Assembly (NCBI GenBank): GCA_040954595.2
Contig: CM082586.2
Coordinates: 11,377,337-11,441,336 of the forward strand
Origin: Balanoglossus misakiensis
Taxonomy: Eukaryota; Animalia; Hemichordata
Direction of reading: 5' to 3'
DNA: 64,000 bases
The translations under genes were made by a program, and so were the position numbers. The notes below the pieces were generated by a model. It was not told the DNA's origin, made no database searches, and saw nothing but the letters and a program-made list of their open reading frames with translations. Shown here piece after piece: positions 12,935-40,992 of the stretch. The stretch's first letter is position 1. Each line of letters begins with the position of its first letter.

Positions 12935-15900
12935 TAGCTCTGCATGGCCTGGTTAATCAATGTTGACGCAAAGGTTGACCCCACCAAACACTCAAAATTA
13001 ATGGGCACGACACTGGCCACTAGCTCTGCATGGCCTGGTTAATCAATGTTGACGCAAAGGTTGACCCCACCAAACACTCAAAATTAATGGGCACGACACT
13101 GGCCACTAGCTCTGCATGGCCTGGTTAATCAATGTTGACGCAAAGGTTGACCCCACCAAACACTCAAAATTAATGGGCACGACACTGGCCGCTAGCTCTG
13201 CATGGCCTGGTTAATCAATGTTGACGCAAAGGTTGACCCCACCAAACACTCAAAATTGATGGGCACGACACTGGCCGCTAGCTCTGCATGGCCTGGTTAA
13301 TCAATGTTGACGCAAAGGTTGACCCCACCAAACACTCAAAATTGATGGGCACGACACTGGCCGCTAGCTCAGCATGGCCTGGTTAATCAATGTTGACGCA
13401 AAGGTTGACCCCACCAAACACTCAAAATTAATGGGCACGACACTGGCCGCTAGCTCTGCATGGCCTGGTTAATCAATGTTGACGCAAAGGTTGACCCCAC
13501 CAAACACTCAAAATTGATGGGCACGACACTGGCCGCTAGCTCTGCATGGCCTGGTTAATCAATGTTGACGCAAAGGTTGACCCCACCAAACACTCAAAAT
13601 TGATGGGCACGACACTGGCCACTAGCTCTGCATGGCCTGGTTAATCAATGTTGACGCAAAGGTTGACCCCACCAAACACTCAAAATTGATGGGCACGACA
13701 CTGGCCACTAGCTCTGCATGGCCTGGTTAATCAATGTTGACGCAAAGGTTGACCCCACCAAACACTCAAAATTGATGGGCACGACACTGGCCACTAGCTC
13801 TGCATGGCCTGGTTAATCAATGTTGACGCAAAGGTTGACCCCACCAAACACTCAAAATTGATGGGCACGACACTGGCCACTAGCTCTGCATGGCCTGGTT
13901 AATCAATGTTGACGCAAAGGTTGACCCCACCAAACACTCAAAATTGATGGGCACGACACTGGCCACTAGCTCTGCATGGCCTGGTTAATCAATGTTGACG
14001 CAAAGGTTGACCCCACCAAACACTCAAAATTGATGGGCACGACACTGGCCACTAGCTCTGCATGGCCTGGTTAATCAATGTTGACGCAAAGGTTGACCCC
14101 ACCAAACACTCAAAATTGATGGGCACGACACTGGCCACTACCTCTGCATGGCCTGGTTAATCAATGTTGACGCAAAGGTTGACCCCACCAAACACTCAAA
14201 ATTGATGGGCACGACACTGGCCACTAGCTCTGCATGGCCTGGTTAATCAATGTTGACGCAAAGGTTGACCCCACCAAACACTCAAAATTGATGGGCACGA
14301 CACTGGCCACTAGCTCTGCATGGCCTGGTTAATCAATGTTGACGCAAAGGTTGACCCCACCAAACACTCAAAATTGATGGGCACGACACTGGCCACTAGC
14401 TCTGCATGGCCTGGTTAATCAGGGTTGACGCAAAGGTTGACTCCACCAAACACTCAAAATTGATGGGCACGACACTGGCCACTAGCTCTGCATGGCCTGG
14501 CTAATCAAGGTTGACGCAAAGGTTGACCCCACCAAACACTCAAAATTGATGGGCACGACACTGGCCACTAGCTCTGCATGGCCTGGCTAATCAAGGTTGA
14601 CGCAAAGGTTGACCCCACCAAACACTCAAAATTGATGGGCACGACACTGGCCACTAGCTCTGCATGGCCTGGTTAATCAATGTTGACGCAAAGAATGACC
14701 CCACCAAACACTCAAAATTGATGGGCACGACACTGGCCACTAGCTCTGCATGGCCTGGTTAATCAATGTTGACGCAAAGGTTGACCCCACCAAACACTCA
14801 AAATTGATGGGCACGACACTGGCCACTAGCTCTGCATGGCCTGGCTAATCAAGGTTGACGCAAAGGTTGACCCCACCAAACACTCAAAATTGATGGGCAC
14901 GACACTGGCCACTAGCTCTGCATGGCCTGGCTAATCAATGTTGACGCAAAGAATGACCCCACCAAACACTCAAAATTGATGGGCACGACACTGGCCACTA
15001 GCTCTGCATGGCCTGGTTAATCAATGTTGACGCAAAGGTTGACCCCACCAAACACTCAAAATTGATGGGCACGACACTGGCCACTAGCTCTGCATGGCCT
15101 GGTTAATCAATGTTGACGCAAAGGTTGACCCCACCAAACACTCAAAATTGATGGGCACGACACTGGCCACTAGCTCTGCATGGCCTGGTTAATCAATGTT
15201 GACGCAAAGGTTGACCCCACCAAACACTCAAAATTGATGGGCACGACACTGGCCACTAGCTCTGCATGGCCTGGTTAATCAATGTTGACGCAAAGGTTGA
15301 CCCCACCAAACACTCAAAATTGATGGGCACGACACTGGCCACTAGCTCTGCATGGCCTGGCTAATCAAGGTTGACGCAAAGGTTGACCCCACCAAACACT
15401 CAAAATTGATGGGCACGACACTGGCCACTAGCTCTGCATGGCCTGGCTAATCAAGGTTGACGCAAAGGTTGACTCCACCAAACACTCAAAATTAATGGGC
15501 GCGACACTGGCCACTAAGCTCTGGCATGGCTAATCAATGTTGACGCAAGGGTTGACCCCACCAAACACTCAAAATTGATGGGCGCGACACTGGCCACTAG
15601 CTCTGGCCTGGCTAATCAAGGTTGACGCAAGGGTTGACCCCACCAAACACTCAAAATTAATGGGCGCGACACTGGCCACTAGATCTGGCCTGGCTAATCA
15701 AGGTTGACGCAAGGGTTGACCCCACCAAACACTCAAATTTAATGGGCGCGACACTGGCCACTAGCTCTGGCCTGGCTAATCAATGTTGACGCAAGGGTTG
15801 ACCCCACCAAACACTCAAAATTGATGGGCACGACACTGGCCACTAGCTCTGGCCTGGCTAATCAATGTTGACGCAAGGGTTGACCCCAGCAAACACTCAA

Positions 15901-18900
15901 AATTGATGGGCACGACACTGGCCACTAGCTCTGGCCTGGCTAATCAAGGTTGACGCAGGGTTGACCCCAGCAAACACTCAAAATTAATACGCGCGACACT
16001 GGCCACTAAGCTCTGGCCTGGCTAATCAATGTTGACGCAAGGGTTGACCCCACCAAACACTCAAAATTGATGGGCACTACACTGGCCACTAGCTCTGGCC
16101 TGGCTACTCAAGGTTGACGCAAGGGTTGACCCCACCAAACACTCAAAATTAATACACGCGACACTGGCCACTAAGCTCTGGCCTGGCTAATCAATGTTGA
16201 CGCAAGGGTTGACACCACCAAACACTCATAATTGATGGGCACGACACTGGCCACTAGCTCTGGCTGGCTAATCAAGGTTGACGCAAGGGTTGACCCCACC
16301 AAACACTCAAAATTGATGGGAACGACACTGGCCACTAACCTCTGGCCTGGCTAATCAATGTTGACGCAAAGGTTGACCCCACCAAACACTCAAAATTGAT
16401 GGGCACGACACTGGCCACTAGCTCTGGCCTGGCTAATCAATGTTGACGCAAGGGTTGACCCCACCAAACAGTCAAAATTGATGGGCACGACACTGGCCAC
16501 TAGCTCTGGCCTGGCTAATCAATGTTGACGCAAATGTTGACCCCACCAAACACTCAAAATTGATGGGCACAACACTGGCCACTAGCTCTGGCCTGGCTAA
16601 TCAATGTTGACGCAAGGGTTGACCCCACCAAACACTCAAAATTGATGGGCACGACACTGGCCACTAGCTCTGGCCTGGCTAATCAATGTTGACGCAAGGG
16701 TTGACCCCACCAAACACTCAAAATTGATGGGCACGACACTGGCCACTAGCTCTGGGCTGGCTAATCAATGTTGACGCAAAGGTTGACCCCACCAAACACT
16801 CAAAATTGATGGGCACGACACTGGCCACTAGCTCTGGCCTGGCTAATCAAGGTTGACGCAAAGGTTGACCCCACCAAACACTCAAAATTAATGGGCACGA
16901 CACTGGCCACTAGCTCTGCCTGGCCTGGCTAATCAATGTTGACGCAAAGGTTGACCCCACCAAACACTCAAAATTAATGGGCACGACACTGGCCACTAGC
17001 TCTGGGCTGGCTAATCAATGTTGACGCAAAGGTTGACCCCACCAAACACTCAAAATTAATGGGCACGACACTGGCCACTAGCTCTGGGCTGGCTAATCAA
17101 TGTTGACGCAAAGGTTGACCCCACCAAACACTCAAAATTAATGGGCACGACACTGGCCACTAGCTCTGCATGGCCTGGCTAATCAAGGTTGACGCAAAGG
17201 TTGACCCCACCAAACACTCAAAATTGATGGGCACGACACTGGCCACTAGCTCTGCATGGCCTGGCTAATCAAGGTTGACGCAAAGGTTGACCCCACCAAA
17301 CACTCAAAATTGATGGGCACGACACTGGCCACTAGCTCTGCATGGCCTGGCTAATCAAGGTTGACGCAAAGGTTGACCCAACAAAAACACTCAAAATTGA
17401 TGGGCACGACACTGGCCACTAGCTCTGCATGGCCTGGCTAATCAAGGCCTGGCTAATCAAGGTTGACGCAAAGGTTGACCCCACCAAACACTCAAAATTG
17501 ATGGGCACGACACTGGCCACTAGCTCTGGCCTGGCTAATCAAGGTTGACGCAAAGGTTGACCCCACCAAACACTCAAAATTGATGGGCACGACACTGGCC
17601 ACTACCTCTGCATGGCCTGGCTAATCAAGGTTGACGCAAAGGTTGACCCCACAAAAACACTCAAAATTGATGGGCACGACACTGGCCACTAGCTCTGCAT
17701 GGCCTGGCTAATCAAGGTTGACGCAAAGATTGACCCCACCAAACACTCAAAATTGATGGGCACGACACTGGCCACTAGCTCTGCATGGCCTGGCTAATCA
17801 AGGCCTGGCTAATCAAGGTTGATGCAAAGGTTGACCCCACCAAACACTCAAAATTGATGGGCACGACACTGGCCACTAGCTCTGCATGGCCTGGCTAATC
17901 AAGGTTGACGCAAAGGTTGACCCCACCAAACACTCAAAATTGATGGGCACGACACTGGCCACTAGCTCTGCATGGCCTGGCTAATCAAGGTTGACGCAAA
18001 GGTTGACTCCACCAAACACTCAAAATTAATGGGCGCGACACTGGCCACTAAGCTCTGGCATGGCTAATCAATGTTGACGCAAGGGTTGACCCCACCAAAC
18101 ACTCAAAATTGATGGGCGCGACACTGGCCACTAGCTCTGGCCTGGCTAATCAAGGTTGACGCAAGGGTTGACCCCACCAAACACTCAAAATTAATGGGCG
18201 CGACACTGGCCACTAGATCTGGCCTGGCTAATCAAGGTTGACGCAAGGGTTGACCCCACCAAACACTCAAATTTAATGGGCGCGACACTGGCCACTAGCT
18301 CTGGCCTGGCTAATCAATGTTGACGCAAGGGTTGACCCCACCAAACACTCAAAATTGATGGGCACGACACTGGCCACTAGCTCTGGCCTGGCTAATCAAT
18401 GTTGACGCAAGGGTTGACCCCAGCAAACACTCAAAATTGATGGGCACGACACTGGCCACTAGCTCTGGCCTGGCTAATCAAGGTTGACGCAAGGGTTGAC
18501 CCCAGCAAACACTCAAAATTAATACGCGCGACACTGGCCACTAAGCTCTGGCCTGGCTAATCAATGTTGACGCAAGGGTTGACCCCACCAAACACTCAAA
18601 ATTGATGGGCACTACACTGGCCACTAGCTCTGGCCTGGCTACTCAAGGTTGACGCAAGGGTTGACCCCACCAAACACTCAAAATTAATACACGCGACACT
18701 GGCCACTAAGCTCTGGCCTGGCTAATCAATGTTGACGCAAGGGTTGACACCACCAAACACTCATAATTGATGGGCACGACACTGGCCACTAGCTCTGGCT
18801 GGCTAATCAAGGTTGACGCAAGGGTTGACCCCACCAAACACTCAAAATTGATGGGAACGACACTGGCCACTAACCTCTGGCCTGGCTAATCAATGTTGAC

Positions 18901-21568
18901 GCAAAGGTTGACCCCACCAAACACTCAAAATTGATGGGCACGACACTGGCCACTAGCTCTGGCCTGGCTAATCAATGTTGACGCAAGGGTTGACCCCACC
19001 AAACAGTCAAAATTGATGGGCACGACACTGGCCACTAGCTCTGGCCTGGCTAATCAATGTTGACGCAAATGTTGACCCCACCAAACACTCAAAATTGATG
19101 GGCACAACACTGGCCACTAGCTCTGGCCTGGCTAATCAATGTTGACACAAGGGTTGACCCCACCAAACACTCAAAATTGATGGGCACGACACTGGCCACT
19201 AGCTCTGGCCTGGCTAATCAATGTTGACGCAAGGGTTGACCCCACCAAACACTCAAAATTGATGGGCACGACACTGGCCACTAGCTCTGGCCTGGCTAAT
19301 CAATGTTGACGCAAGGGTTGACCCCACCAAACACTCAAAATCGATGGGCACGACACTGGCCACTAGCTCTGGGCTGGCTAATCAATGTTGACGCAAAGGT
19401 TGACCCCACCAAACACTCAAAATTAATGGGCACGACACTGGCCACTAGCTCTGGGCTGGCTAATCAATGTTGACGCAAAGGTTGACCCCACCAAACACTC
19501 AAAATTAATGGGCACGACACTGGCCACTAGCTCTGCATGGCCTGGCTAATCAATGTTGACGCAAATGTTGACCCCACCAAACACTCAAAATTGATGGGCA
19601 CGACACTGGCCTCTAGCTCTGCATGGCCTGGCTAATCAATGTTGACGCAAATGTTGACCCCACCAAACACTCAAAATTGATGGGCACGACACTGGCCACT
19701 AGCTCTGCATGGCCTGGTTAATCAATGTTGACGCAAAGGTTGACCCCACCAAACACTCAAAATTGATGGGCACGACACTGGCCACTAGCTCTGCATGGCC
19801 TGGTTAATCAATGTTGACGCAGAGGTTGACCCCACCAAACACTCAAAATTGATGGGCACGACACTGGCCACTAGCTCTGCATGGCCTGGTTAATCAATGT
19901 TGACGCAGAGGTTGACGCCACCAAACACTCAAAATTAATGGGCACGACACTGGCCACTAGCTCTGCATGGCCTGGTTAATCAATGTTGACGCAAAGGTCG
20001 ACGCCACCAAACACTCAAAATTAATGGGCACGACACTGGCCACTAGCTCTGCATGGCCTGGTTAATCAATGTTGACGCAAAGGTCGACCCCACCAAACAC
20101 TCAAAATTAATGGGCACGACACTGGCCACTAGCTCTGCATGGCCTGGTTAATCAATGTTGACGCAAAGGTTGACCCCACCAAACACTCAAAATTGATGGG
20201 CACGACACTGGCCACTAGCTCTGGCCTGGCTAATCAATGTTGACGCAAGGGTTGACCCCACCAAACACTCAAAATTGATGGGCACGACACTGGCCACTAG
20301 CTCTGGCCTGGCTAATCAATGTTGACGCAAGGGTTGACCCCACCAAACACTCAAAATTGATGGGCACGACACTGGCCACTAGCTCTGGGCTGGCTAATCA
20401 ATGTTGACGCAAAGGTTGACCCCACCAAACACTCAAAATTGATGGGCACGACACTGGCCACTAGCTCTGCATGGCCTGGTTAATCAATGTTGACGCAGAG
20501 GTTGACGCCACCAAACACTCAAAATTAATGGGCACGACACTGGCCACTAGCTCTGCATGGCCTGGTTAATCAATGTTGACGCAAAGGTCGACGCCACCAA
20601 ACACTCAAAATTAATGGGCACGACACTGGCCACTAGCTCTGCATGGCCTGGTTAATCAATGTTGACGCAAAGGTCGACCCCACCAAACACTCAAAATTAA
20701 TGGGCACGACACTGGCCACTAGCTCTGCATGGCCTGGTTAATCAATGTTGACGCAAAGGTTGACCCCACCAAACACTCAAAATTGATGGGCACGACACTG
20801 GCCACTAGCTCTGGCCTGGCTAATCAATGTTGACGCAAGGGTTGACCCCACCAAACACTCAAAATTGATGGGCACGACACTGGCCACTAGCTCTGGCCTG
20901 GCTAATCAATGTTGACGCAAGGGTTGACCCCACCAAACACTCAAAATTGATGGGCACGACACTGGCCACTAGCTCTGGGCTGGCTAATCAATGTTGACGC
21001 AAAGGTTGACCCCACCAAACACTCAAAATTAATGGGCACGACACTGGCCACTAGCTCTGGGCTGGCTAATCAATGTTGACGCAAAGGTTGACCCCACCAA
21101 ACACTCAAAATTAATGGGCACGACACTGGCCACTAGCTCTGGGCTGGCTAATCAATGTTGACACAAAGGTTGACCCCACCAAACACTCAAAAATTAATGG
21201 GCACGACACTGGCCACTAGCTCTGCCTGGCCTGGCTAATCAATGTTGACGCAAAGGTTGACCCCACCAAACACTCAAAATTGATGGGCACGACACTGGCC
21301 ACTAGCTCTGCATGGCCTGGCTAATCAAGGTTGACGCAAAGGTTGACCCCACCAAACACTCAAAATTGATGGGCACGACACTGGCCACTAGCTCTGCATG
21401 GCCTGGCTAATCAATGTTGACGCAAATGTTGACCCCACCAAACACTCAAAATTGATGGGCACGACACTGGCCACTAGCTCTGCATGGCCTGACTAATCAA
21501 TGTTGACGCATATGTTGACCCCACCAAACACTCAAAATTGATTGGCACGACACTGACCACTAGCTCTG
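12935..21568. repeat. 86-bp satellite (with 82-bp variant lacking CATG), about 100 head-to-tail copies
   Basis: Unit tagctctgcatggcctggttaatcaatgttgacgcaaaggttgaccccaccaaacactcaaaattgatgggcacgacactggccac; starts at 12935, 13021 and so on; no unique spacers. Confidence 0.98.
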
Positions 21569-21605
21569 CACTACAGCCCAGTGTGCGCCATCTTTGTCCG
21601 ATATT
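21569..21605 (+). repeat. Left TIR (13 bp + 11-bp spacer + 13 bp)
   Basis: CACTACAGCCCAG-tgtgcgccatc-TTTGTCCGATATT. Confidence 0.8.
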
Positions 21606-21687
21606 TCCGTCCCTACTTTCATGGCCTCATGAATAATGTATGAGGCGATTTGTTACCGGCAATGGAACGTTCGCCAGTTACAACAAC

Positions 21688-24600
21688 ATGAAAATGCCGG
21701 TAAGTATTACAAGACATTAAACGCATTTATAATGTTTACATCACGTTATCATATTCGTTAAGGTCTTAAGCTAGTATTGTCATCATTCTCTGATTTCTAT
21801 TCATTTAATTTCACTGAAAATCTGACCTGGTTTCAAATCGCTATCATTGGTAACTATGTAAACAAAGAACATAGCAACCACAACCAAGACAGAAAAACGG
21901 CCGAAAAAATCAAATCTTAATGCATTATTCAAAATTTCAAAACCATGAGAGTGTTCCTAAGACGTTTGTAACTCAGTGTTTTGATTTTCTATCCCCAAAA
22001 AGGTCATATGTAGAAATTGATCCAAGCAGAAATTCATCGAGTTTGGCGCGTTCTGCCTGCGCGTCGCTCTACCATTGATTACAATGGCACAGCTACGCAA
22101 ATGTCGACCATCAGGCAAAACATATCGGCAGATTTCTCGAGTTTGAAGCGTGAACCTAAAAAACCAAAACGAGCAGATTGTTCCTTGATATCTATATAAC
22201 ATGTTGATATATCATTTTCGTTCTAAAATGTAAGAGTAAATATTTTGAACGAGAGAGTTCTTGCGACAGCGCTTTGAACGCCGCGCGCGTACAGCGTTTA
22301 GGCAAAGCAGACGCACACAGAAGGAACTGCGTCCACGCGCAATATACGTAGATTGCAGCTGATTATACTCAATCAATGTTCCGGTACTTGCAACAGTATG
22401 CCAGTACTTCGCAAAATACACAGTCTTTTATATCATCAGGTCTTCTGTAGCGTCATTAAATACTGTCTGTTTGGAACTGTTTGACTGAAACAGCTTTCTA
22501 GATGACCTTTTATGTTTTCTACAACTTTTCACATTTATTCACATTTAGGAAATGCTCCATTGTGTAACTCCATCCCAGCTGTGCTCTGGATATAACTCAA
22601 ATCATGCCTAACAGGAAAAGGACAAACCATTTTGACATCGGGCAGTATGCAGTCCAACAAAAAAAGCCAGAGAAATAGCTAGAGACATACAACTTCAACA
22701 GCTGTTAGATGCTGAGTTAGCTGCAAAGACACTGCCAGAAAAGGTTAAGAGCAAGTCAGAGAATAGATACAAGCTAGGGGCATGGGCAAGAGAGAGAAAG
22801 CGTAGACGTGAGGAAGAGGTAGCTCAGTACAGAGAGAAAATGCAGAAATTAGATGCAAAGAGGAGACTAGTCGACAGGGCCAGTAAGCAACTAAACAGGC
22901 TAGCAAAGAAGCAAAGGAGATTAGCTGGAAATAGGGTTAAGCTTAATCAGGAGGTAAGGTAATTATATAGAAGGAATTTAGCTTCATTTCAGATTTTCAC
23001 AAGATTTATGATTACAAACAGAATAGGAAAATATCCACCAAATTAAAGTTTGTATACTTTAAATTATATTACAACTAAGTGAATCATAAAACATTTTGAC
23101 CTTGCTTTAATGTATATGATATGATTTTATGTGTGTTTGTTTTCTAAATTCTGAACTACAGCTTTGAAACACCTCCCTGCTTGACCTTGGCATAACACTG
23201 GGGTTTCCATTTATGCATATTGCTTGCTCATGTGACATTGCCTCTCTGTTTGACCTTGGCATGACACTGGGATTTCCATTCATGTGTATTGCTTGATCAT
23301 GTGATATTCTCTCTCTGTTTGACCTTGGCATGACACTGGGGTTTCCATTCATGTGTATTGCTTGCTCATGTGACATGGCCTCCATGTTTGACCTTGGCAT
23401 GACACGTGGGTTTCCATTTATGTGTATTGCTTGCTCATGTGACATGGCCTCCATGTTTGACCTTGGCATGACACTGGGGTTTCCATTTATGTGTATTGCT
23501 TGCTCATGTGACATGGCCTCCATGTTTGACCTTGGCATGACACTGGGATTTCCATTCATGTGTATTGCTTGATCATGTGATATTCTCTCTCTGTTTGACC
23601 TTGGCATGACACTGGGGTTTCCATTCATGTGTATTGCTTGCTCATGTGACATGGCCTCCATGTTTGACCTTGGCATGACACTGGGGTTTCCATTCATGTG
23701 TATTGCTTGCTCATGTGACATTGCCTACCTGTTTGACCTTGGCATGACAATGAAAATCTGTTTTGTATTCATTTATTAAAGATTGCAGATTTGACATCCC
23801 CAAAGAAACAGAAGTGGGTTCATAAAAGCAGCCAGGTTTGTGCTAATAACAGTGAATGCCTCACACTGTCCAGAAGTCAGCAACATGAACGCAGAAGTCA
23901 GACTCTTCATGCAGCTACAGTCATACACCAGTCATCATCAGGAACAGATATATCTGCAGGGAGACATGTCAGTGCAAATCCACCAAAATCAGCTCTTGAT
24001 GGGCTATGGTATACTTTGATCAACAGTGCCACTCCACGTCAAATGGAAAAGTACCTTCAATCATCAATGAAAATAAATGAATTGGTCATACCAACTTTGA
24101 TAAAGAAATCAATATCTGAATTTGAGAAAAGTGAAGGTAATTTGACTAGGAGTGTGCAAGTGTTGTATCAGAATGGGGTTTTGTCAAAACGCAAATACAA
24201 TGCCTTACGTAATAGTGAGTTGAATCTGTCTAAATTAAAACAACCTAGAAAAGTGTTGCAATTTCACTTTAGGTGTAACATACCAAGGTTACTTTCCTAC
24301 AACAAGGTCACTGAATATACACGTGGTTTAGATATAGGAAGTCTTGAACCAATTGTAACAGATGCAAACAAAGTAGTGGGTATGAAGCGAAATACAGAGC
24401 AGATGCTCTTTAAAGTTGCTGACATGTATCTTTGCTTGAGTGAGCACCACCCTAACATCCTAAATTGGTTTGGCAAACCGAAGGGCACTTTCCAACTTGC
24501 TGTTGGTGCTGATGGGGCTCCTTTTGGAAAATATGGTCAGGCAACTTCCTGGCTTGTCAGTTTCATCAATGTGGGCCACAGATTAGCAAGCCCTGATGAT

Positions 24601-25988
24601 AATTTCTTGTTGCTAGGGGCTAATCTGAAGGAAGATGACCCAGTCCTGATAGATTATGCTAAAAACCTAGCCAAAGAGTTTGAGATCATAGAGGCCAAAC
24701 AATACACTTTACATGGCCTGAGTGTAAAGTTTAATGTATCTTTGCTGCCATTTGATCAAAAGGGATTAGCCTCAGTTTCTGGTGAGTTATCTAATGCTGC
24801 TGAGTATTTCAGTTCCTTTGCTAATGTAACAAAAGGTAGCATAGATGAAATAGGGGCAGATATAGGGCCAGGGAAATTTTGGTCAGAGTGGAGCTATAAG
24901 CAGTGGCAAAATTCAAAGCAAATTTGACAAAGAAAACAGGTAAGCCTGAAACATCGACAGATCGCTCTAAGGTCACACGTTTCATTGCCTCCAGAAAATC
25001 CCGACAGGAATATATTCCACCCCTGGGTAAGTATATACAGTGTGCCAAGATAGAACCCCTACATCTAAAAAACAATGCCTGGCAGTATTTCTTTCAAAGG
25101 CTTCTTACTGATGCTGTGGCTAAGACTGACCAAAAAGTCATTGACCATGGTGTGAAATTAGAAAAGCTACCACCAAATTCATGCCTGTACAAATTCCTGC
25201 ATACACTAAAATATACAGTGAGAGCAGGGAAACTATACAATCAAATTGTCAAATATTTTGCTGAGAATAAGGTTAGTACCCATGCCCAATCAGTGAGAGT
25301 TCACCGCTTTACAGGGGAAGAATCAAGGAAGTTGGCATGGTCTTTTATGTCACTGATAGAGTGTTTTAGGGAACCCGGTATCAGTGCACAGGTGAGAGCG
25401 AAATTGTCCCTGTATGGTTACATTGGTGTCCTACTCAGAGATATAACATCTCTCTGTTCCAGGTTTACCCTACATGAGAGAGATATTGTAGTACTAAGGC
25501 AGAAGTGCAAATGGTACTTCAATTTGCATGCGTTATTTCTGACCGTAAACAATACTATTTGGCATATAGGATATGTTGTTCCGTGTCATGCATCTCAAAT
25601 CCACCAGCAGTTCCAAATGGGGCTTGGGCTTAATACAATGGAGGGCAGGGAGGCAAAACATCAGCGCCTTCTGGAATACAGCAATAATTCCACCCCTCAA
25701 AATAGATGGCCACTAATTTTCAGACATGAGTATGTATTGTTGTACTGGTTACGCATGCGAGACCCCGCTTCAGATAACTACAGGGGGGATGGGAGGTCAA
25801 ATGCCTCCAAAGTAATAAAGTACATCCCAGACAAATGCTTTGATGACCCATCATACTGTTATTGTGGGAATGTAAAGGAAGAGTTGTCAAATTCCTGTGA
25901 AATATGCAGCAGTGAATTTATGTCAGAAATAAAACAGTCTGCAATTAGTGGTAAGATCTCAAAAAAACTAAAAAAAATAATGAAATAA
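21688..25988 (+). pseudogene. Spliced RAG1-core/Transib-like DDE transposase; predicted exons 21688-21699, 22549-22953, 23782-25988; two nonsense codons in exon 2 and a frameshift near 24903
   Basis: Phase-0 GT-AG junctions (ccg|gtaagt, tttag|gaa, gag|gtaagg, taaag|att). Motifs AVGADGAPFG, LPFDQKGLASVSGELS, IEPLHLKNNA, RFTGEESRKL, GLGLNTMEGREAKH parallel, in order, RAG1 ESCDGMG, GYDEKLVREVEGLE, IDALHCDIGNA, RMNGNFARKL, SIGAWASEGNESGN. Exons 1-2 are less certain than the core. Confidence 0.78.
23177..23748. repeat. 69-bp minisatellite (~8 copies) inside predicted transposase intron 2
   Basis: Unit tttgaccttggcatgacactggggtttccattcatgtgtattgcttgctcatgtgacatggcctccatg; gives the 23-aa repeat ORF 23107-23721. 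Confidence 0.95.
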
Positions 25989-26408
25989 AATGTGAAAGTT
26001 TGAATTTCATGATTCAAAACAATTATTACTGTACATGAAATGTACCAGATAGTTTTAGATTTGTATATAACTGTAAGAGAGTTTGTTGTAAATAATCTTT
26101 CATTATGAATGTCACAGATTTTGTGCTGCTTGTATTGTATTGTTCAAAATATGTATATAGCTTTTTAATCATCCTTTGAAACTAGCTGCTTATATCAGCT
26201 CTGTAGATAACCATGTTTCAAAATAAGTGAATAAAAACTGAATGATAAATGATTCACCCACAGCTATTCAGTTCCTATAAAACATGTTTTTCTTTTTTAA
26301 TTTTGCTTGGACATGCAACGATGCATGAATTCAAATGGACTGACAAAAAGTAATATAGTCAGTTCCAAGAACATGAAAAAAAATTTCAACAACAGTCTAA
26401 ATATGATT

Positions 26409-27029
26409 TCACAAATGCTGAGCAACACCATGTTTGTTCCAGCATCCAAAATGGAAATGTATTGTCACTGTCTCGGCTGATTTCCTGTATCTGACAATCA
26501 TAGGTTTATCTTCGGTGCAGATAACTTCCACCCGCTTACCCTTTACTGTCTTCACCAGAAGTTGTTGGTTTTCATAGTTGACACCTCTACCCAGCACGTA
26601 ATTCACTTTGTTGATCCAGGTAAATCGAAAGGTAGCAATACATGGAGTTTCCCGATCATAAATTCCCATTGAATTACGGGTAGCGCACTTTCGAAATACA
26701 TCGAAAACTTCCATAGGAACATTCCTACCAAAACTGCACTTCCATGGGTTGCGCACTGAGGGTGATGGCTTCATTCTCTGCATAATTGTTGAGCGCCAGT
26801 GACACATCTCCCGTTCGAATACAGGATACACCGGAATCTGCTGCATCTTCGCAAGCTCCACCATCGTTGCACTACGTTTGCGAACTGTTACATCAACAGC
26901 AGCATCGAGATCATCAAAACAATCATGTAGGTTGATGGAACGGTCGATATTTGTCCTCAATAACTGAAATTTGGCCTCACGCAGCTTACGTTTCACTGTT
27001 TTAGAAACATCGATCATGGACGCCGCCAT
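26409..27029 (-). CDS. 206-aa protein of unknown function, second (convergent) gene of the transposon
   Basis: Uninterrupted non-repetitive ORF, start context caaaATGGCGGCG about 105 bp inside the right end, AT-rich 420-bp gap to the transposase stop; no kelch or PHD pattern seen. Confidence 0.75.
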   Translation of the reverse strand: MAASMIDVSKTVKRKLREAKFQLLRTNIDRSINLHDCFDDLDAAVDVTVRKRSATMVELAKMQQIPVYPVFEREMCHWRSTIMQRMKPSPSVRNPWKCSFGRNVPMEVFDVFRKCATRNSMGIYDRETPCIATFRFTWINKVNYVLGRGVNYENQQLLVKTVKGKRVEVICTEDKPMIVRYRKSAETVTIHFHFGCWNKHGVAQHL

Positions 27030-27097
27030 TTTGTATATACGATGCTAGGAACGTGACCCCAGCATATGACCTCAATTAACATATTTCCGCTTCGCGG

Positions 27098-27134
27098 AAT
27101 AGCGGACAAATGAACACACTTCTGGGCCGCAGTG
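27098..27134 (-). repeat. Right TIR (13 bp + 11-bp spacer + 13 bp)
   Basis: Reverse complement reads CACTGCGGCCCAG-aagtgtgttca-TTTGTCCGCTATT. Confidence 0.8.
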
Positions 27135-29721
27135 CTGCATTTTTGGAGTGGTCGAAAGTTTTAACATACAATCAACATGTCATATATGATCAGGGCACCA
27201 AATTCGAAGAACAAAGGTTTTTTTATTTTTTTTCTAAAAATGACATTTTCAAGGAAAATTTGGTAAAACGCAATTTCGTCTGCAGTGAGCCAAATTAGAC
27301 TGTATTTTGTGGAATTTGTATCGATATATACATACGAAGAGCATTCTATACTCCATCAGATTTCCGAAAATGTAGAAAACAGGTATTTTTTGTAATTTTC
27401 AAAAATTTACCATTTTGACCAAATTGTGGCTAAAATTGTTATTTTCGTGTTGAATGCCGCCAGTGTCACTGCTTTTAAAAGTCATCAAAACTTTTAACAT
27501 ACAAGCAATTGTTTATATATGATCAGGTCACCGAATTAAAAAAATAAAGAATGTTTTCCCTAAAAATGACCTTTTTGGTGCAAAAACGAATAAAACGCAA
27601 TTTTGTATTAAATCAGCTCATTCAGAGTGCATTTTTTATAATCAGCACCATTTTTTACATATAATGGAAATTTCATACATCATCAGATATCCAAATATGA
27701 AAAAATGATTTAGATTTTAGATGATTGTCCAAAATTAGCTGATATCTAATAAATGTAGTATTGAACCGTTCCGTCCCCCCCCCCCTACATTATATGCGGT
27801 ACGCCGATGTCAGCTTACCCGGCAGTACTGCAGGCCGTGCCGCCAACTAACGTCGGTGTTTGAAACGCCCTGGTTAAATTCGGGCTCTCTCTATAAATTG
27901 ACAGGCAATAATGCAGTCCTACCCGAACAAATGTCGAGTGTTGACCCGCTGTGACTTTCCCTCTTCGGTTTGCCCGACTTAGCCAACGTCTTTGTACTAG
28001 AGTGTCGGGTCTTTTGCAGAGCCAGGCCGAAGGAAATCCGAGTAGATCAACGTGGTCTCTGTACGCGTGTTTCTGCTCTAGAGTGTCGGGTCTTTTGCAG
28101 AGCCAGGCCTAAGGAATTCCGACTTGATCAACGTTGCTAACGAACGCTAGTGTCTGTCATGGTGTGCCGGGGTTTTAGTCGAGCCAGGCCGTAGGAGATC
28201 TGACTTGATCATCGTGGTCAATGTACGCGTGTTTCCGCTCTAAAGTGCCGGGGCTTCAGCTAAACCAGGCCGTAGGAAATCCGACGTAATCACCGTTGAT
28301 AACTTCCGCCAGTCTGTGTCATATAGAGCCGGTGCACCAGCCGAGTCACGCCGTAGGAAATCTGACTTGATCAACGTGGTCAATGTACGCCTGTTTCTGC
28401 TCTAGAGTGCAGGGGCTTCAGCTAAACCAGGCCGTAGGAAATCCGACGTAATCACCGTTGATAACTTACGCCAGTCTGTGTCATATAGAGCCGGTGCACC
28501 AGCCGAGTCACGCCGTAGGAAATCTGACTTGATCAACGTGGTCAATGTACGCCTGTTTCTGCTCTAGAGTGCCGGGGCTTCAGCTGAGCCAGGCCGTAGG
28601 AAACCCGACGTGATTACCGTTGTTAACTTACGCCAGTCTGTGTCCTATATGTAGTGCCGGGGCATCAGCCGTGCCAGGCCGAAGGAAATGTGAGTAGATC
28701 ATCGTGGTCTCTGTACGCGTGTTTCTGGTCTATAGTGCCAGGGCTTTAGCCAAGCCATGCCGTAGGAAATATGACTTGATCAACGTTGCTTACTAACGCT
28801 AGTGTCTGTCATAGTGTGCCGGGGTTTTAGTCGAGCCAAGCCGTAGGAGATCAGACTTGATCAACGTGCTCTCTGTACGCGTGTTTCTGCTCCAGAGTGC
28901 CGGGGCTTTATCCAAGCCATGCCGTAGAAAATCTGACTTGATCACCGTTGCTAACGTACGCTAGTGTCTGTCATATTGTGACGGAGATTTAGCCGAGCCA
29001 GGCAGAAGAAAAATCGACTTGTTCAACGTTAACAGTGTGCAACTGTTTCTGCTCTAGAGTGTCAGGGTTTTAGCCGACTTATGCTGTAGGAAATCTGAGT
29101 TGATGAACGGGAATTCAATGTTAGAAAACCCGTGTGGAAAGTATCTCTACCCGTTTGAAACTAAGAAAAGAATTTATTCTTATTTATTTTGTAAAAAAGA
29201 CAATTTTTCGAGAGAAAAAAAGTCGAAAATGGTAATTTTGTCTTGGGTGATTCAAATTATACCGCCTTTTCTGGAATTTGCAGCACTTTTTACAGAGAAC
29301 GACACTTCATGCTCCGTAATATTTCCGAAAATGAAGAAAACAGTTAATGTTTTATGATTTTTTAAAAATTTACCATTTTTGTCAAAATTTGGCCAAAATG
29401 GCTATTTTTTCTTGAATTCCGTCAATATCTCTGCATTTTTGGAGTGGTCGAAAGTTTTAACATACAATCAACATGTCATATATGATCAGGGCACCAAATT
29501 TGAAGAACAAAGGTTTTTTTATTTTTATTTCTAAAAATGACATTTTCAAGGAAAATTTGGTAAAACGCAATTTTGTCTGCAGTGAGCCATATTAGACTGT
29601 CTTTTTTGGAATTTGTATCGATATATACATACGATAAGCATTTTATACTCCATCAGATTTTCGAAAATGTAGAAAACGGGTATTTTTTGTAATTTTCAAA
29701 AATTTACCATCTTGCCCAAAT

Positions 29722-30050
29722 TGTGGGGAAGTATCGTGGCAGTGATCAATACTCCCGGGAGGGGGTTCGAGTATACTGACGTCGGAAAAGAAGCGAACGA
29801 TTCAGTGCTAGGTAAAACACTGGTTTATTACCATCTGAATCCAACAACAAAGTAACACCACAGAGCTCCTTACAAAATGCTGCCCGAAAGCGCCAAAACT
29901 GGGTTATATATAAGTCCCACGAACGCCGGAGCAAACACTCAACAATTACAATAAATCTGCTACAAGTTTGGCGGGAAACAAAGTCAACTCTGATAGGGTA
30001 AGAGTTTCCGTCACGTGATCCTTCTGGAGTAAATCTCTCACTTCTCCATA
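29722..30050 (-). repeat. 3' LTR (329 bp)
   Basis: Direct repeat of 37305-37640; preceded on the minus strand by the polypurine tract ggcgcgggggagaa (30051-30064). Confidence 0.95.
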
Positions 30051-30221: not shown

Positions 30222-33028
30222 TCAAATAGAGAGATCCGATATTCGTACTCGAGCGGCAACTGCAGAGTCTCTGACAGGTCGTCTCGGGGGTACAACATCC
30301 GCCTTCACCGAGGAATCTTCAGAGGCTCCAGCTGTGTCGACTGTTTCAGTATTCGTGTTGGAATCTGCTCCAATACCTGTATTATCTCCAGACACAGTTG
30401 ACAGCTCCTTGGAGACAACTTCCAATGGGTACAATTTATGGATAGGTCGGTTTGTAGGACCACCTGCGGTGTTCAACTCCGCAGATCGTACCAGTTTATT
30501 ATTACCGAAGATCAACCTTGTTACAGTTCCTAAATGCCATTTCGGACGTTTGTCAGTGTCACTGTGTATTATCACGACATCTCCGACCTTGATGACATTA
30601 TCACGAGTTCCTTTGGTGGGATGTCGTTCACGTAGGGCAGTCAGATACTCGGACGACCATCTTCGCCAAAATTGATCGTGTAATCTTGATAGATGTTCAT
30701 ATCTTTTGTTGATTTCACGATTATCACAGTAAGATGGGTCAATCACCTCCTCGTCGGTGATCTCGATGTACGGCAATGAGGTCAGTGTCCTGCCATGTAG
30801 CAAGTGATTTGGGGTCAATCCAATGTTGTCGTTTATACTAAATGACACGTACGTTAACGGCCTGTCGTTTAAAACGGCTTCAATTTCAGTCACAACTGTT
30901 GCGAGTTCATCAAAGGTTAGGTAAGCTCGACCGAGAGTTTTCCTAATAGCGTTCTTTGTCAAAGCAATCAGCCTCTCCCAGAAGCCACCAAACCAGGGCG
31001 CGCGCTTCGGTATAAACGTCCATTGTACACGGTGTGCGGCGAGAAAGTCATTTACTTCTGGCGTATCAAACAGTGTTTTGATTTCATTGGCAGCCGATAA
31101 ATAAGTCGATGCGTTGTCTGACAGCATCCTACTCGGCAAAGAACGTCTCGCGGCGAATCTTCTGAACGCGTGCATGAACGTCTGGGTTGACATATCAGGA
31201 ACCAGTTCTAGGTGAATGGCACGCGTCACCGCACAGGTGAATAAACAGATATAGGCTTTGGCACGTGTCCCATCTTTGGCCTTGGTATAAAGATGACCCG
31301 TGAAATCCACGCCTGTTACAGTAAATGCTGGGACAATGTTCACTCGATAACTTGGTAGCGGCGCTTGCACTGGATTCGCGTAAGGTTTCCCGGTAACTTT
31401 GTTGCAAATGACACAACCACGTAAGACACCGCGTACAATAATCTGAATTTTGGGGATCCAATATCTTTGCCTTATCTGTGTCACTGTAGATTGGACTCCC
31501 TGGTGAAGCGTCAGTTCGTGTGATTTCCGTATTATCAAATTTGTCAATTTATGATGCGAGGGTATCAAGGCGGGAAATCTTGTGACGAAATCGATCGGCG
31601 CGTTATGGATTCTACTCCCACAGCGAAGTACGTCTTCTTCGTCAACAAATAAGTTCAGTTGTCGAACAATGGGCGCACATTTACTCAAGTTCAATTTCAC
31701 AGACTGGATTTCGGCGTCATAGAACTGCCGTTGAATATGTTTAACCCACATATTTTCCGCTCGGTGCAGCTCATCAGGGGTAATTCTCCCGTGTTTCACC
31801 TCGGTAGATTTTTTCATCCGTGCGATGAATCTGAGGACATAACTTGTCACTCGTAATAGCCTATCCAAGTTGTTGAATCTGGAAATGTCAACAACGTGTT
31901 GAATTCCGTAGTCATTGGGACTGGTAATTTCCAGATTTTCGCGATCTGTACATCGTCTGGCTTTGGGGGGAGCGAGTATTTCTGCCTTCTCGGTAGACTG
32001 ATCGTTGATTCCGTTGCCGAAACGCGGCGGCAATCTGTCCGTCTCATCTGGTTCGATTGCGGTATGCATCACATTAACATCAAACGCTGGGCAACTAGGC
32101 CAATCGCTTGTCTTTAGCCATGTTGGTCCATTACGCCATAGTTCAGAGCGTTCCATCATTTCGTAGGTTACCCCTCTGGTTAAAAGATCAGCTGGGTTGT
32201 GTTCTGATGGGCAGTATTTCTTTGTGGACTGAAATTCGCGAATTTCATCTACTCGATTCTTCACAAACACCGGAAGTCTCTTCTCACTGTTCAGCCAGTG
32301 AAGGACAATTTGGCTGTCACTCCATAAATAACAACGAACTATGTCATATTTGGAGGACAGGGCTTCTTTAGCGTACTTGCTGAGACGTGTGGCTATTAAC
32401 GCAGCCATCAATTCCAGTCGCGGGAGTGTAGTTTCAGCCACTGGTGCGGTTCTAGTCTTCGCCATCACAAACGACGTTTGCTGTCCTCTTTTCAAATACA
32501 CTACTGCCCCATACGCTCTCTGGCTTGCGTCTGCAAAGGCGTGTAGCTCGCATTCATTGTCGCCTTCAAGTTCATCAAAATATTGTCGTTCGATCTTCGT
32601 GTTTCGCGAGTCTTTGAGATCTTCTGCGATGTGCATCCATTGAGTGTAGAGATCTGCGTTGATAGGTTCATCCCAGTCTAATTCCAGTTTCCATAGTAAC
32701 TGAATGAACAATTTGGCTTTGATCATTACAGGGGCGAGAAATCCAAACGGATCAAATAGCATCGCCACATAGCTGACAATGTCACGTTTGGTCACGAGTT
32801 CGGCACGCGACGACATATTAACCACTTTGGAGTAAGTCAATTCGTCAGATTTTGTTGACCACTGCATTCCCAAAACGGATACATCTTCGGTGGGTTCGTT
32901 CAGATTGTCACATGTAGCGAGTTCGTTTATTTGTTGACAGTTGGAAGACCATGCTCTGAGTTTGAATCCGCCTGATGTCATCAACTCATTGGCTTCATGG
33001 TAGTATTTCATGGAGTTTTCTGCAGTAT
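30222..33028 (-). pseudogene. pol: BEL/Pao pol C-terminal part: end of RT, RNase H, integrase
   Basis: GGFKLRAWSSN, HAFADASQRAYGA, TLPRLEL, NPADLLTRG, H..H..CVIC zinc finger, GVDFTG, SDNASTY, GGFWERL; separated from the N-terminal part by a LINE insertion. Confidence 0.93.
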
Positions 33029-34465
33029 GTTTTTATTTTATTTATTTATTACACAGATCAACGGGCAAACCCACTTACAGATCTGGAAAACAATAAAAAC
33101 AATTAAGTCACAAAACAAAAATTAACTGAAAAACAAGACACCAAAAAAGTAACACATGTCACGTAAAATATAAATACAAATCAAGGAACAGTACCATTAA
33201 AATGACTGGATAAAATAGATTTAAAACTGTGGAGCGTAGAAAAAATATCAATATTACATTTAGAAGAAATCTCATTAAAAGCAGACATGCATCTGAGCAT
33301 TGTCGAGAATTTTCTACAATTAACGGAGCGCAAATCGGGTTTAAAAAGGGGTTTCTTGCGTAAATTTCTACTAGGGGCGTAAAAACATATTTGATTTAAA
33401 ATACCAGGTGAATCATACTGTGAGTGGATAATTTTGTATAAAAAAAACATGTCAAGGGTGAGTCTTCTGTTATATAACATTGGGATATTCAGTAATCTAC
33501 AATAAATAGGGTAGCTGGACCTGCTGCAGTGAATATTGAGTTTGCAACAAATGTACTTCACAAACTTAATTTGTACCCGCTCAATCTTGTCTGACAGGCC
33601 CTTTTGGTGGGGTGACCACACAACAGAGCCATACTCTAGAATAGATCTTACATAAACAAAATATAGAGAAATAATAGCGGATATGTCATTAAAAGGCTGG
33701 CAGAGGCGCTTAATAAAACCCAGAGATTTGAAGGCTCTGGAAACTGTGTTATTTATGTGGAAAGAATAATTGAGATTAGAAGTAAGGTATATGCCCAAGT
33801 CCTTGATTACAGAAACACGTTGAAGGGGAGTGCCATTGATAGAGTAGTCAGTAGATGAAATAACCCTTTTCTTTAGGGTGAAACTGATGAATTTGCATTT
33901 ATTGATATTAGGTGACAACTTCCAGTTGTCACACCAGAGAGCAAATTTATCAAGGTCTTTCTGTAACAAGTCACAATCAGCGGAGGAGGTGATAGTACGG
34001 TAAATCTTAGCATCGTCGGCATACATGCTGAGCTTTGCAGAAATATCTAACAGTGATATATCATTTATATACATTACAAAAAGTAGTGGCCCCAAGAGTG
34101 AACCTTGTGGGACCCCCGATGTAGCAGTGAAGCTGTTTGACGAGTGACTGCCAAACACCACCCTCTGTTGTCTGAGATGGAGATACGACGCCAGCCAGCT
34201 GTGCAAATTGCCACATATACCAAATTTGGCGGCTTTGTACAGCAGTAGTGTGTGACAGACACTGTCAAACGCCTTGCTAAAATCAGTGTAGATTGAATCT
34301 ACCTGTTCTTTGTTGTTCAATGAAGCTGAAATGAAATCAGTGTAAGCCACTAAGTTGGTTGTGGTAGATCTATTTTTAACAAATCCATGCTGATCAATGG
34401 ATATATTTGGTTGAACATGCTGGTAGATATGAGGGACAATGACAGCTTCGAAAATCTTAGCAAAA
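33029..34465 (-). mobile_element. 5'-truncated non-LTR retrotransposon (CR1/L2/Jockey-group RT) inserted in the BEL RT
   Basis: DQHGF, DFSKAFDSV, SGVPQGSLLGPLLF, YADD, DLGI; open to stop at 33181; (TAAA)n tail at 33029-33050; TAT duplicated at 33026-33028 and 34466-34468. Confidence 0.92.
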
Positions 34466-37271
34466 TATCAACTCCATCGATCACATTATCCACACAGATA
34501 TTATTTCCCAATCTGTCAGCGGTGGGAAGTTGACTATTGTTCTCTAAATGCGTCTTGATAACCGCATTGAGGATGAATGGGGAACAGACTGCTCCAAACA
34601 AGACAGACTTAAACTGCAAAGTTATGAAGTCACTTTCTGGGTCGTTAATGTCCGACAGCCACAGAAATTTCGTGAATTTCCTCTCATCTTCTTCCAACCG
34701 AATGTTCAGGAATGCTTTCTCAATGTCAGCTGTGAAAGCAATGTTATTGGCGCGGAATCTCAGCAGAATCGCTGGCAGGTCATTTATTAATGACGGTCCA
34801 GTTTGCAAGCAATCATTCAAACTTGGATAATTAGAATCCTTCTTACAAGAGCAATCATAAACGATGCGAATGGGTGTTGTGGTCGAATTCTTAACCACCG
34901 GACGATGTGGCAAATAGTGTCCGATATTCACGTCATCTTCGTCAACCTCTCCGATGAAGTCGCGACGTCTCTGTTCATTGATTATGTCGTCATATTTCTT
35001 GATGAGTTCAGAGGGTAACCTGCGTATCATATTACGCGTGCGTTTCATGGCGACATCGTAGTTGGTGGGTAGTGGAGGGTGATCTTCCTTCCACAGTAGT
35101 TTAGCTACGTATTTTCCTCGGTCAACTCTCAAGTGCGTGTCTCTGTAAGACTCGTACGTCAACTGTTCATCAACTGTTGGATTGTCCTGAATACCGATCA
35201 ATTCAAGGTCCCACATATTTTGGACCTGTGGTTCTCGGCCGATCGCAGTACTATCCATCGGTGTATACATGTCCGTTGCGCGATCTCCATGCAGTCCGTT
35301 GATAGAGTTCTCTGAAACTACGTTACTGGTATCAGCAGTAGAAATCACATGTAAGATATGCGCATTAGAATCCACTTTGGGAGTTCCGAGGGGTCCGGAG
35401 AGTAAGTATCCAAATTTGGATGACACAGCAGTGGGGCCGGACGCGCCAGAAATAACGTGTGAGCCCACGAAATTCCAATATTGGTCGGCTCCGATTAGAA
35501 CATCTATTGGCCACGACTGATCACTCGAAACTGGATGTGCGAATGGTAGCCCTTTCAGGTGGCTCATATTGTGGACTTCCTGAGAAATGTGATTTGTTAA
35601 GTCCGACGATATCTCTGGAATTATCATCGCGTGAATAGTTGAAGTATTCCCGTTCAGTTCATGAGCAGTTAGTTCGGTGAATCCCATGGTGCGTACTTTG
35701 GAATCCTTGCCACGGAAGGTCGATAACTTTATGTGTTCGTGCCGCGTAGCTTTCGCGGACAGCTGACGGGCGAATCTCTCAGTGACGAATGTCTTATTTG
35801 CTCCTTCATCAAACAGGATGATGGCATGTATGGGGGTTCCCCGTCCGACAGACAGTGGTAAAAACGCAGTTTTCAGCAGCACTGGCCCAGTGTTTATCTT
35901 CTTATCCGTAAATGTATCGGTATTAGTCAATGTTACTTTGACATCAGAAGTACTTGATGATGGCGATGGCGAGGACGACGCTCCGGTTGGCGTAGTTGTA
36001 GCGGTGGGAACGTCGTAGTGTAGCGCAGAGTGATGACGTTTCCTACACTTTCTGCAGGAGTATTTTGATTTACACTCCGCAACTCTATGTTTTCCAAAGC
36101 AATTAAAACATAGTCTGTCCTTCTTCACAATGTCCAGTCTCTCGCGCGTATCAGTTACCACAGTGCAATTTGACGCGAAGTGTGACCCTTTGCAGAACGG
36201 GCACGTTTTGACAGGGGCGCGAAAATTCTGTTTACCTGTCATCTGCGTTTTCGTGTGAAACGCGGTTATTACCGGTTCTCTGGTAGTGGCCATTGTTATC
36301 TCGTCGACCCGGTTGCCGGCTTGAAGGGCGTTTATCTCGTGTTGAATGGCTTTTCGTAGATCTGGTAATGTCCACGCAGCATTACCATGTTTTCTTGCTA
36401 TCTGCTCTCGAATGTTAGGAGGTAATTTCTCCCGTATTATTGGAACCAAAAGTTCGCCGTATGTGGTTTCCTCCTTACCCAGCGACTGAAGACCTCGAAC
36501 GTGATTTTCAATCGAGTCGTAGAAATGCCTTAAACTTTGTACGTCGGCGGTTGGGCTTTGTAGATTCCACAACGCGGTCATATGAGCATCTACTATGAGA
36601 TGGGTTTGTCCGTATCTTTCGGTCAATAAGTCAATCGCGTGCGTGAGTGGCAATCCGTTGATTGTTCTCGCTGCTTCATCTTTGAGTACACTCCGCAAAT
36701 ACGTAAACTTCTGAATGTTGTCCAAATTAGTGTCCGAAGGTATCGAAGACTTGAATACATCGAAGAAACTCGACCATTCTATTACATTGCCTGAGAAAGT
36801 TTGCAGCTGGAGTTTCGGTAGAGTTACTGTTTTACGAGGCGTCGCGTTGCCGAGGCTGCTTCCCGTTACATTACCAGTACTAGTAGTAGCTGTCCGCATC
36901 TCCGATTTGTTTTTCTTGATGAAAGATGCGATGCGATGATTGTGTTCGAAGATTTCGGCGTGGTAGTCGCCTGAAGTTTCATTTTCTTCGTCAAAGTGTT
37001 CATCGTCAATTAGATCGAGGATTCTCACCTCGAGGTCGGCGAGTAGACGGATCTTGTTCGAAAGTTGTTCGTTTAGCCCTTCCAGCGTGTCGAGTGTAGT
37101 CGGCTTGTCTGTACCGACGTCTACGAAATTGTTCATGATGGTGTCGGCCCGGTTGAACAGTCGGGTCACTTGTGCGCGTTGACCACGACGCGATCTCTTC
37201 AGTTTTGTCAACGCTGTTGGCTGATCCTCTTGTTGTCCATCTTGTGGCGCGATGTGTTCTTGTTCCGACAT
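34466..37271 (-). pseudogene. gag-pol: BEL/Pao gag-protease-RT N-terminal part
   Basis: LPKLQLQTFSG, three Cys/His knuckles (CPFCKGSH..C, CFNCFGKH..C, CRKCRKRHH), protease ILFDEGA and DVLIGAD, RT ADIEKAF, FGAVCSPF, CVDN (expected YVDN). Confidence 0.93.
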
Positions 37272-37282
37272 CTTGCTCGGTT

Positions 37283-40881: not shown

Positions 40882-40992
40882 TAAATGTCATTACATAGCT
40901 AATGCTAGTGTTCCATGTGCACATAACGTGCTTGGACTACAATGATTAGAACATTTGTCTAATACTAGAGTCCGCCATAACGGCCAGCCAGC

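Follow-up and report, generated by a model that had tools for sequence, protein, structure and literature searches.

The transposon and its genes

The window, i.e. the whole stretch of 64,000 nucleotides of Balanoglossus misakiensis DNA analysed here, contains a complete DNA transposon with two genes that are read towards each other, a transposase and a smaller partner gene (Table 1). The element ends are of the CAC..GTG type, with 3 mismatches between left and right end in the first 14 nt. On its left side the element is bordered by an 82-86-bp satellite, on its right side by a different high-copy repeat. The 82/86-bp satellite extends over 8.6 kb (12935-21570), and a tandem macro-repeat of about 2 kb with 81/162-bp subrepeats lies at 27135-29730 and 52900-64000. 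The two repeats meet exactly where the element lies (21562-21570, 27135-27140), both contain CTCTGCAT at that point, and this border may stem from recombination between two insertions or from an adjacent deletion. One contig of run X2 omits the whole element (21570-27137); its joint reads CTG-CAG-CGG-CAT and looks, to judge by these letters, like an empty site with the inverted-duplication footprint of hairpin-forming transposases, the short side being 27 letters long and the flanks being repeats.

Table 1. Position of the transposon, its ends and its genes in the window
Feature	Positions	Strand	Basis or remark
Complete two-gene DNA transposon, 5,566 bp	21569..27134		Inverted ends, flanking duplication, X2 contig skipping the element
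Left target-site duplication, CTG	21566..21568		Sequence
Left imperfect terminal inverted repeat, starts CACTACAGCCCAG	21569..21600	plus	Sequence
Transposase exon 1 (inferred); its start is basic, one stretch coiled-coil-like	22604..22953	plus	Three-frame translation
Inferred GT-AG phase-0 intron	22954..23781	plus	Sequence
Transposase exon 2, DDE core	23782..25988	plus	60-65% identity to P0002
AATAAA, candidate poly(A) signal of the transposase	26230..26235	plus	Sequence
Partner gene (P0001), 206 aa	26409..27029	minus	Read as one exon, runs towards the transposase
Right imperfect terminal inverted repeat, starts CACTGCGGCCCAG	27103..27134	minus	Sequence
Right target-site duplication, CTG	27135..27137		Sequence

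The partner gene had been described in the earlier note as a clean 206-codon frame about 105 bp inside the right end, and this is what is found, the frame being uninterrupted from ATG to stop with the ATG 105 bp from position 27134. In 2000 mononucleotide shuffles the 1.1-kb region never yielded a frame as long as this (the longest had 162 codons), and contigs of run X1, which may be the source sample, span the frame with zero differences. The 206-codon frame is real, and the earlier observation is partly confirmed. Its intactness, as had been allowed for, may simply reflect short length: at 1-3 lesions per ~830 transposase codons a gene of 206 codons is expected to be intact 78-48% of the time, so intactness gives no support to a function. 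The motif AA(A/G)ATGGCG, presumably resembling a YY1 site, contains the start codon of the partner in most relatives (27022-27033 in the window) and is also found near the left end, pointing outward (21583-21595). Further copies were viewed through contigs of runs X1 and X2, which come from one sample, possibly the source; among them is a second 3' end of a partner gene (corresponding to 26408-26448).

Transposase

The N-terminus encoded by exon 1 has similar counterparts in P0017 and in locus L008, and the 830-bp gap read as an intron houses a 69-bp tandem array of 8.4 copies (23172-23749). Three lesions had been reported in the transposase, and two were found. The first, a frameshift in an A-run of exon 1 at 22658, occurs in this assembly only and is probably an assembly error, since no X1 or X2 contig has it. 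The second is a short deletion with a frameshift in exon 2 near 24900; it is present in contigs of both runs, and the window copy is therefore dead by at least one lesion. The same contigs disclose other family members of the sample, about 81% alike (24463-24554 and 25617-25762), with differences mostly spaced in threes.

The best relative of the transposase is P0002 of Ptychodera flava, and further named matches come from sea anemones and one nemertean. The window transposase hits no family of Pfam at cut-off, its 28 relatives give only scattered single-member matches, and a search of PDB sequences produced nothing meaningful. A structural model of P0002 (pLDDT 88) matches RAG1 with a Foldseek E of 2e-12 and a VIA Z of 21.6 (rmsd 4.3 over 463 residues), followed by BbRAG1L (Z 20.1), HzTransib (14.6) and the P element (12.1). 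Judged on this close relative, a RAG1 fold is predicted for the transposase. A place for the family inside RAG/Transib does not follow from the ranking, because no CMC transposase is among the VIA matches listed for the model; other CMCT lineages likewise match RAG1 by HHpred, according to the available part of PMC12730594.

The catalytic residues D181, D262 and E566 are invariant in all 28 relatives. The motifs C(2)C and H(3-4)H from the stretch separating the second D from the E are not conserved in them; the conserved residues are GEL..A.Y.S.F after D262, W..G...P.H with a single His before E566, and an LH motif (L369 in 28/28, H370 in 27/28). Near the C-terminus lies a CxC..CxxC motif (about 25860-25915 in the window; C637, C639, C650 and C653 in P0002), with cysteines kept in 24-28 of 28 relatives. 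It may form a tail that binds zinc, to be compared with the CTT of RAG1L.

Partner protein family

The partner had been called an orphan, and this description did not hold. A full HMMER pass with the partner profile over 50%-identity cluster representatives found 118 proteins at E<=0.001, including a few spurious repeat proteins, and 24 at 1e-10. Members that are whole mostly measure 190-260 aa, with [YF]GxWNxxGxPQH at the end; named ones come from Pocillopora damicornis and Tubulanus polymorphus. All six matches of an alignment search with the partner family carry the precomputed accession PF26709, so the domain has already been noticed by curators; the accession is not named in the literature searched. 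In the Pfam release searched, which lacks PF26709, the window partner matches no family at cut-off and its relatives give scattered single-member matches, and no kelch, Myb/SANT/MADF (E<=0.05), chromatin-reader or enzyme domain was matched in 87 members. Other searches were equally poor in results: a word-indexed protein search with P0001 confirmed 0/47 candidates, PDB sequence searches with P0001, A1 and A3 gave nothing meaningful, the ESM Atlas held no usable match for P0001 or P0037, phage records contained no match, and 0/36 candidates from viral contigs were confirmed. P0113 of Tubulanus polymorphus (LOC141906646) has three isoform models in which a longer protein, which we take to be tau/MAP2-like, carries at its C-terminus a domain of the partner family; the join may reflect a captured exon or a fused gene model.

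The structure of the partner was modelled from 87 sequences (pLDDT 94), with helices at 2-25, 34-53, 56-62 and 67-85 and a seven-stranded alpha/beta domain at 97-197. The protein is accordingly predicted to consist of an N-terminal part that is helical and variable, and of a basic alpha/beta domain that is conserved and has YGxWNxxGxPQH at its end. The basic helical N-terminus proposed earlier was upheld as to the helices (2-85) and not as to the charge, which lies mostly elsewhere (net +3 in residues 1-62, +3 in 63-96 and +9 in 97-206), and the beta-strand-like C-terminal half corresponds to the alpha/beta domain. The reported lack of kelch repeats and PHD agrees both with the Pfam result and with a model made of helices and one alpha/beta domain. 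The partner has a pI of 9.8, and 61 of 63 full-length members are net positive. Lysine or arginine is found at positions 84, 85 and 160 in 87-95% of members and is also conserved at 175; no acidic residue is invariant across the members and no Cys column is conserved in the family. As the protein is basic, with conserved K/R and no invariant acid, its charge pattern would fit a non-catalytic nucleic-acid-binding protein.

Structure prediction and Foldseek had been suggested as a check; the former supplied a predicted fold, the latter no functional lead. With the partner model no PDB entry matched at E<=0.001. The top Foldseek row, CENP-N, had an E of 0.034 and a TM of 0.23 and is absent from the 50 entries listed after VIA realignment, so it was discarded as a match; AFV1 ORF99, AcrID1 and the RnlA N-terminal repeat reached Z 4-5 to the alpha/beta domain, within background. 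The wide VIA search used the whole model, and the helical hairpin of residues 1-61 filled the matches, so that the alpha/beta domain was barely probed. Searched as a whole protein, the partner model is without a clear match among solved structures. The predicted complex of transposase exon 2 from L008 (729 aa) and its partner (208 aa), computed without alignments, scored 0.00, and the partner fold in it was uncertain; this counts neither for nor against contact between the two proteins.

Linkage, selection and decay

Metagenome contigs were scanned with the C-terminal motif of the partner, which gave 56 loci, 50 with a strong profile match (6 were dropped). A transposase is present in 17 of these 50 and is convergent with the partner, tail-to-tail, in every one of the 17, at a gap of 240-1,639 bp. 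It is present in 12/17 loci with at least 1.5 kb downstream and in 11/14 with at least 2 kb; most loci missing the transposase are contigs too short downstream, and in a lenient rescan of 11 loci a weak match to the transposase tail appeared at the contig edge of L024 and L038. Five loci with at least 1.5 kb downstream miss the transposase. Of these, L005 is a complete 2.8-kb element with a broken partner only; with L044, which is 92% like it, it represents a 2.8-kb non-autonomous family keeping a partner copy. In L002, L037 and L045 the absence is without explanation.

These loci were chosen by the partner motif and include near-duplicates, and the reverse test, led by the transposase, has n = 1: its sole match, L057, is an element of 8.5 kb that is complete and has its partner intact and convergent. 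Two results named in the earlier note as unfavourable, homologues that occur independently of the transposase and absence of the frame from other copies, were not encountered: the relatives stand tail-to-tail with the transposase, and this single transposase-led match carries the partner. L057 (4293-12834) lies on a contig binned as a bacterial MAG (Anaerolineae), the element itself being of animal type, and the contig is likely host DNA contaminating the MAG. An inverted 339-bp copy of the 5' part of the partner is located near the other end of this element.

Duplications of 3 bp flank all six complete elements (window CTG, L005 AAG, L008 ATC, L011 AAT, L025 AAC, L057 ATA). End candidates with 4 mismatches in L003, L016, L019 and L027 were rejected, lying inside the element and having no duplication. 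A CAC end motif, with the consensus CACGCTGGG or CACG(C/G)CGGG, stands 70-121 bp before the partner start in 19 of 28 testable loci, as compared with 255 of 7,878 control positions (3.2%). The placement of the partner in the position of RAG2, claimed from the outset, is borne out: it is convergent to a DDE transposase of predicted RAG1 fold inside CAC..GTG ends.

An intact partner frame of at least 180 codons is present in 18 of 51 loci, the window included. The dN/dS of the partner is 0.10-0.22 in 5 diverged pairs and 0.38-0.40 in 2 close pairs, 3 pairs being saturated; in three close element pairs it is 0.34-0.43 for the partner versus 0.32-0.44 for the transposase. The values near 1 that would have spoken against a functional gene were not seen, and the partner is shown to be under purifying selection similar to that of the transposase. 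With the near-duplicates L019, L033 and L055 left out here and in the lesion count, partner and transposase identities correlate over 15 loci (Spearman rho 0.575, Mantel p 0.0002), the partner diverging faster (mean identity 0.31 vs 0.40). Trees of both genes for 11 loci have well-supported groups in common, namely L008+L041, L017+L051 and (L016+L050)+(L001+L027), and co-divergence reaches down to about 35-40% transposase identity. Lesions number 14 in 2,423 partner codons and 52 in 5,615 transposase codons, the latter possibly inflated by overlapping HMM pieces; the difference is not significant (p 0.14), which shows that the partner decays along with its element and that no domestication has taken place here.

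It could still be argued that the partner is captured host cargo or a chance frame without a role for the element, given that intactness is uninformative, that lesion rates in the two genes do not differ significantly and that in the nemertean gene model P0113 the domain is attached to a longer host protein. The constant place and orientation, co-divergence and a dN/dS below 1 across 35-40% transposase identity count against such an origin, which is very improbable and already largely refuted; recent capture, as considered earlier, is likewise unsupported at this depth of co-divergence. There is little doubt that the partner is a dedicated gene of the element.

Relation to known transposons

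RAGL transposons have a kelch/PHD partner and a 5-bp duplication (PMC9435367; PMC7204232, in its available part). Like RAGL/ProtoRAG (RAG1L and RAG2L), the element has two convergent genes inside CAC-starting inverted ends and a transposase model similar to RAG1 and BbRAG1L along about 460 residues. In contrast to RAGL/ProtoRAG, the partner is a 206-aa alpha+beta protein with neither a six-bladed kelch propeller nor a PHD, the duplication is of 3 bp, not 5, in 6/6 complete elements, motifs of the ZnC2/ZnH2 type are not conserved and identity to RAG1 is about 10%. The element ends have CAC in common with the RSS heptamer and depart from it after base 3. One might nevertheless see in the partner a highly diverged RAG2 homologue and in the element a RAGL transposon, as position and orientation are the same and the P0002 model is nearer to RAG1 and BbRAG1L than to HzTransib. 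This has almost no probability: according to the model, 206 aa folded into helices and seven strands could not form a six-bladed propeller, there is no conserved Cys/His pattern of a PHD, and the duplications have the wrong length, 3 bp and not 5 bp.

Transib elements share the RAG1-like DDE fold and CAC ends, and differ in that here a second gene is present, the duplication is of 3 bp and C(2)C and H(3-4)H are missing. The Transib duplication is 5 bp long. Within the CMC group, Chapaev3 has CAC..GTG ends, a 3-bp TWA duplication and the LH motif (PMC4079192, in the part available), so that ends, duplication length and LH motif agree with Chapaev/Chapaev3. The two-exon transposase is also met in some Chapaev3; however, a TWA duplication is found in 0/6 elements here, C(2)C and H(4)H are missing, and a conserved second gene is present. 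By the features that define them, the element belongs neither to RAGL nor to Transib nor to Chapaev3.

The CMCT clade is described, in the accessible portion of PMC12730594, as having CA..TG ends, 2-5-bp duplications and a RAG1-like transposase with C(2)C and H(3-4)H in common. Ends, duplication and transposase type are thus like those of EnSpm/CACTA and the CMCT lineages Plavaka, ESTA and Lanisha, whereas C(2)C and H(3-4)H are missing here, no Pfam transposase family is found in 28 relatives, and the partner matches no Pfam family searched (release without PF26709). A second protein is known from EnSpm as well. The element fits the CMCT clade by its ends and fold, not by its motifs. PIF/Harbinger elements, too, combine a transposase with a smaller, faster-evolving basic partner and a 3-bp duplication, but the present family differs in its RAG1-type transposase fold, its CAC ends and the lack of a Myb/SANT/MADF match in 87 partner members. 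The literature search met no description of the family; Repbase, subscription journals and full supplements may already list such elements, and a motif search of the available part of the supplement to PMC9435367 gave only a weak negative, since many sequences there are printed in blocks of ten.

Role of the partner protein

The interpretation in the earlier note is upheld in part: its accessory-factor reading is favoured, the partner behaving as a dedicated accessory gene by its placement, co-divergence and dN/dS below 1. It is given about an even chance that its role is that of a non-catalytic transposition cofactor. Its transcription would start at a promoter within the element end, and the basic protein would bind DNA, either the end or the target, and help the transposase to move the element without taking part in catalysis, e.g. 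in transpososome assembly. It would then correspond to RAG2, or to the Myb-like protein of Harbinger, by analogy and not by homology; in Harbinger the second protein attaches to the ends and brings about import of the transposase (PMC9392472, in its available part). The fold searches gave no functional lead, which is counted against the cofactor role. The partner need not be a cofactor at all, because single-gene Transib and Chapaev elements move without one.

Somewhat unlikely, in our estimate, is an anti-silencing or chromatin factor that acts on element chromatin or host silencing and not on the transposition reaction, as VANC does in plant VANDAL elements. Linkage, selection and co-divergence fit it equally well, the partner diverges faster than the transposase (0.31 vs 0.40), the transposase-less L005 keeps a partner copy, and the top Foldseek row, poor as its scores are, is a nucleosome-binding kinetochore protein. 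Elements of the CMCT clade in fungi carry TET genes (PMC12730594, in the part available). Yet no chromatin-reader or enzyme domain was matched in 87 members, CENP-N is not among the 50 entries listed after realignment, and tight co-divergence over deep splits would suggest an element-specific rather than a host-specific constraint. Still less is to be expected of a negative regulator, i.e. that the partner, or convergent transcription itself, limits transposition by repressing the transposase promoter or inhibiting the transposase: the convergent layout with 3' ends 420 bp apart and the basic protein agree with it, but Pfam recognises no known repressor domain, and such a role is distinctly unlikely.

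To return to the cofactor role, the partner is in any case a real, conserved and co-evolving second gene of a two-gene RAG1-fold transposon lineage that is apparently unnamed, and the named matches place its hosts among marine invertebrates (cnidarians, nemerteans and hemichordates). We propose tentatively, at somewhat less than an even chance, that this unnamed RAG1-fold lineage, whose duplications are 3 bp long and which lacks the zinc motifs of RAG1/CMC, acquired independently an obligate partner in the place of RAG2, and that the fold of this partner is undescribed. If this is true, it would be a second natural experiment in which a RAG1-type transposase became a two-subunit enzyme, with L008 and L057 as intact copies. 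How RAG1 became dependent on RAG2 is still being asked in work on the origin of adaptive immunity. If the partner that occupies the place of RAG2 is indeed unrelated to it and co-evolving, the two-gene layout would be shown to have more than one origin, and a two-gene family allows a direct test of what the partner adds. The CMCT clade would be widened by members with 3-bp duplications that have lost the common zinc motifs. Were the partner only a regulator, it would still add a new family to the accessory proteins of animal DNA transposons.

Other contents of the window

Long gag-pol-like frames, which we take to be of the BEL/Pao type, occupy 30222-37280 on the minus strand and are interrupted at 33181-34467 by what is presumably a LINE-type reverse transcriptase fragment. 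Three further long frames on the minus strand (39832-44007) are presumed to be of the DIRS type, with a gag-like protein, a reverse transcriptase/RNase H and a tyrosine recombinase.
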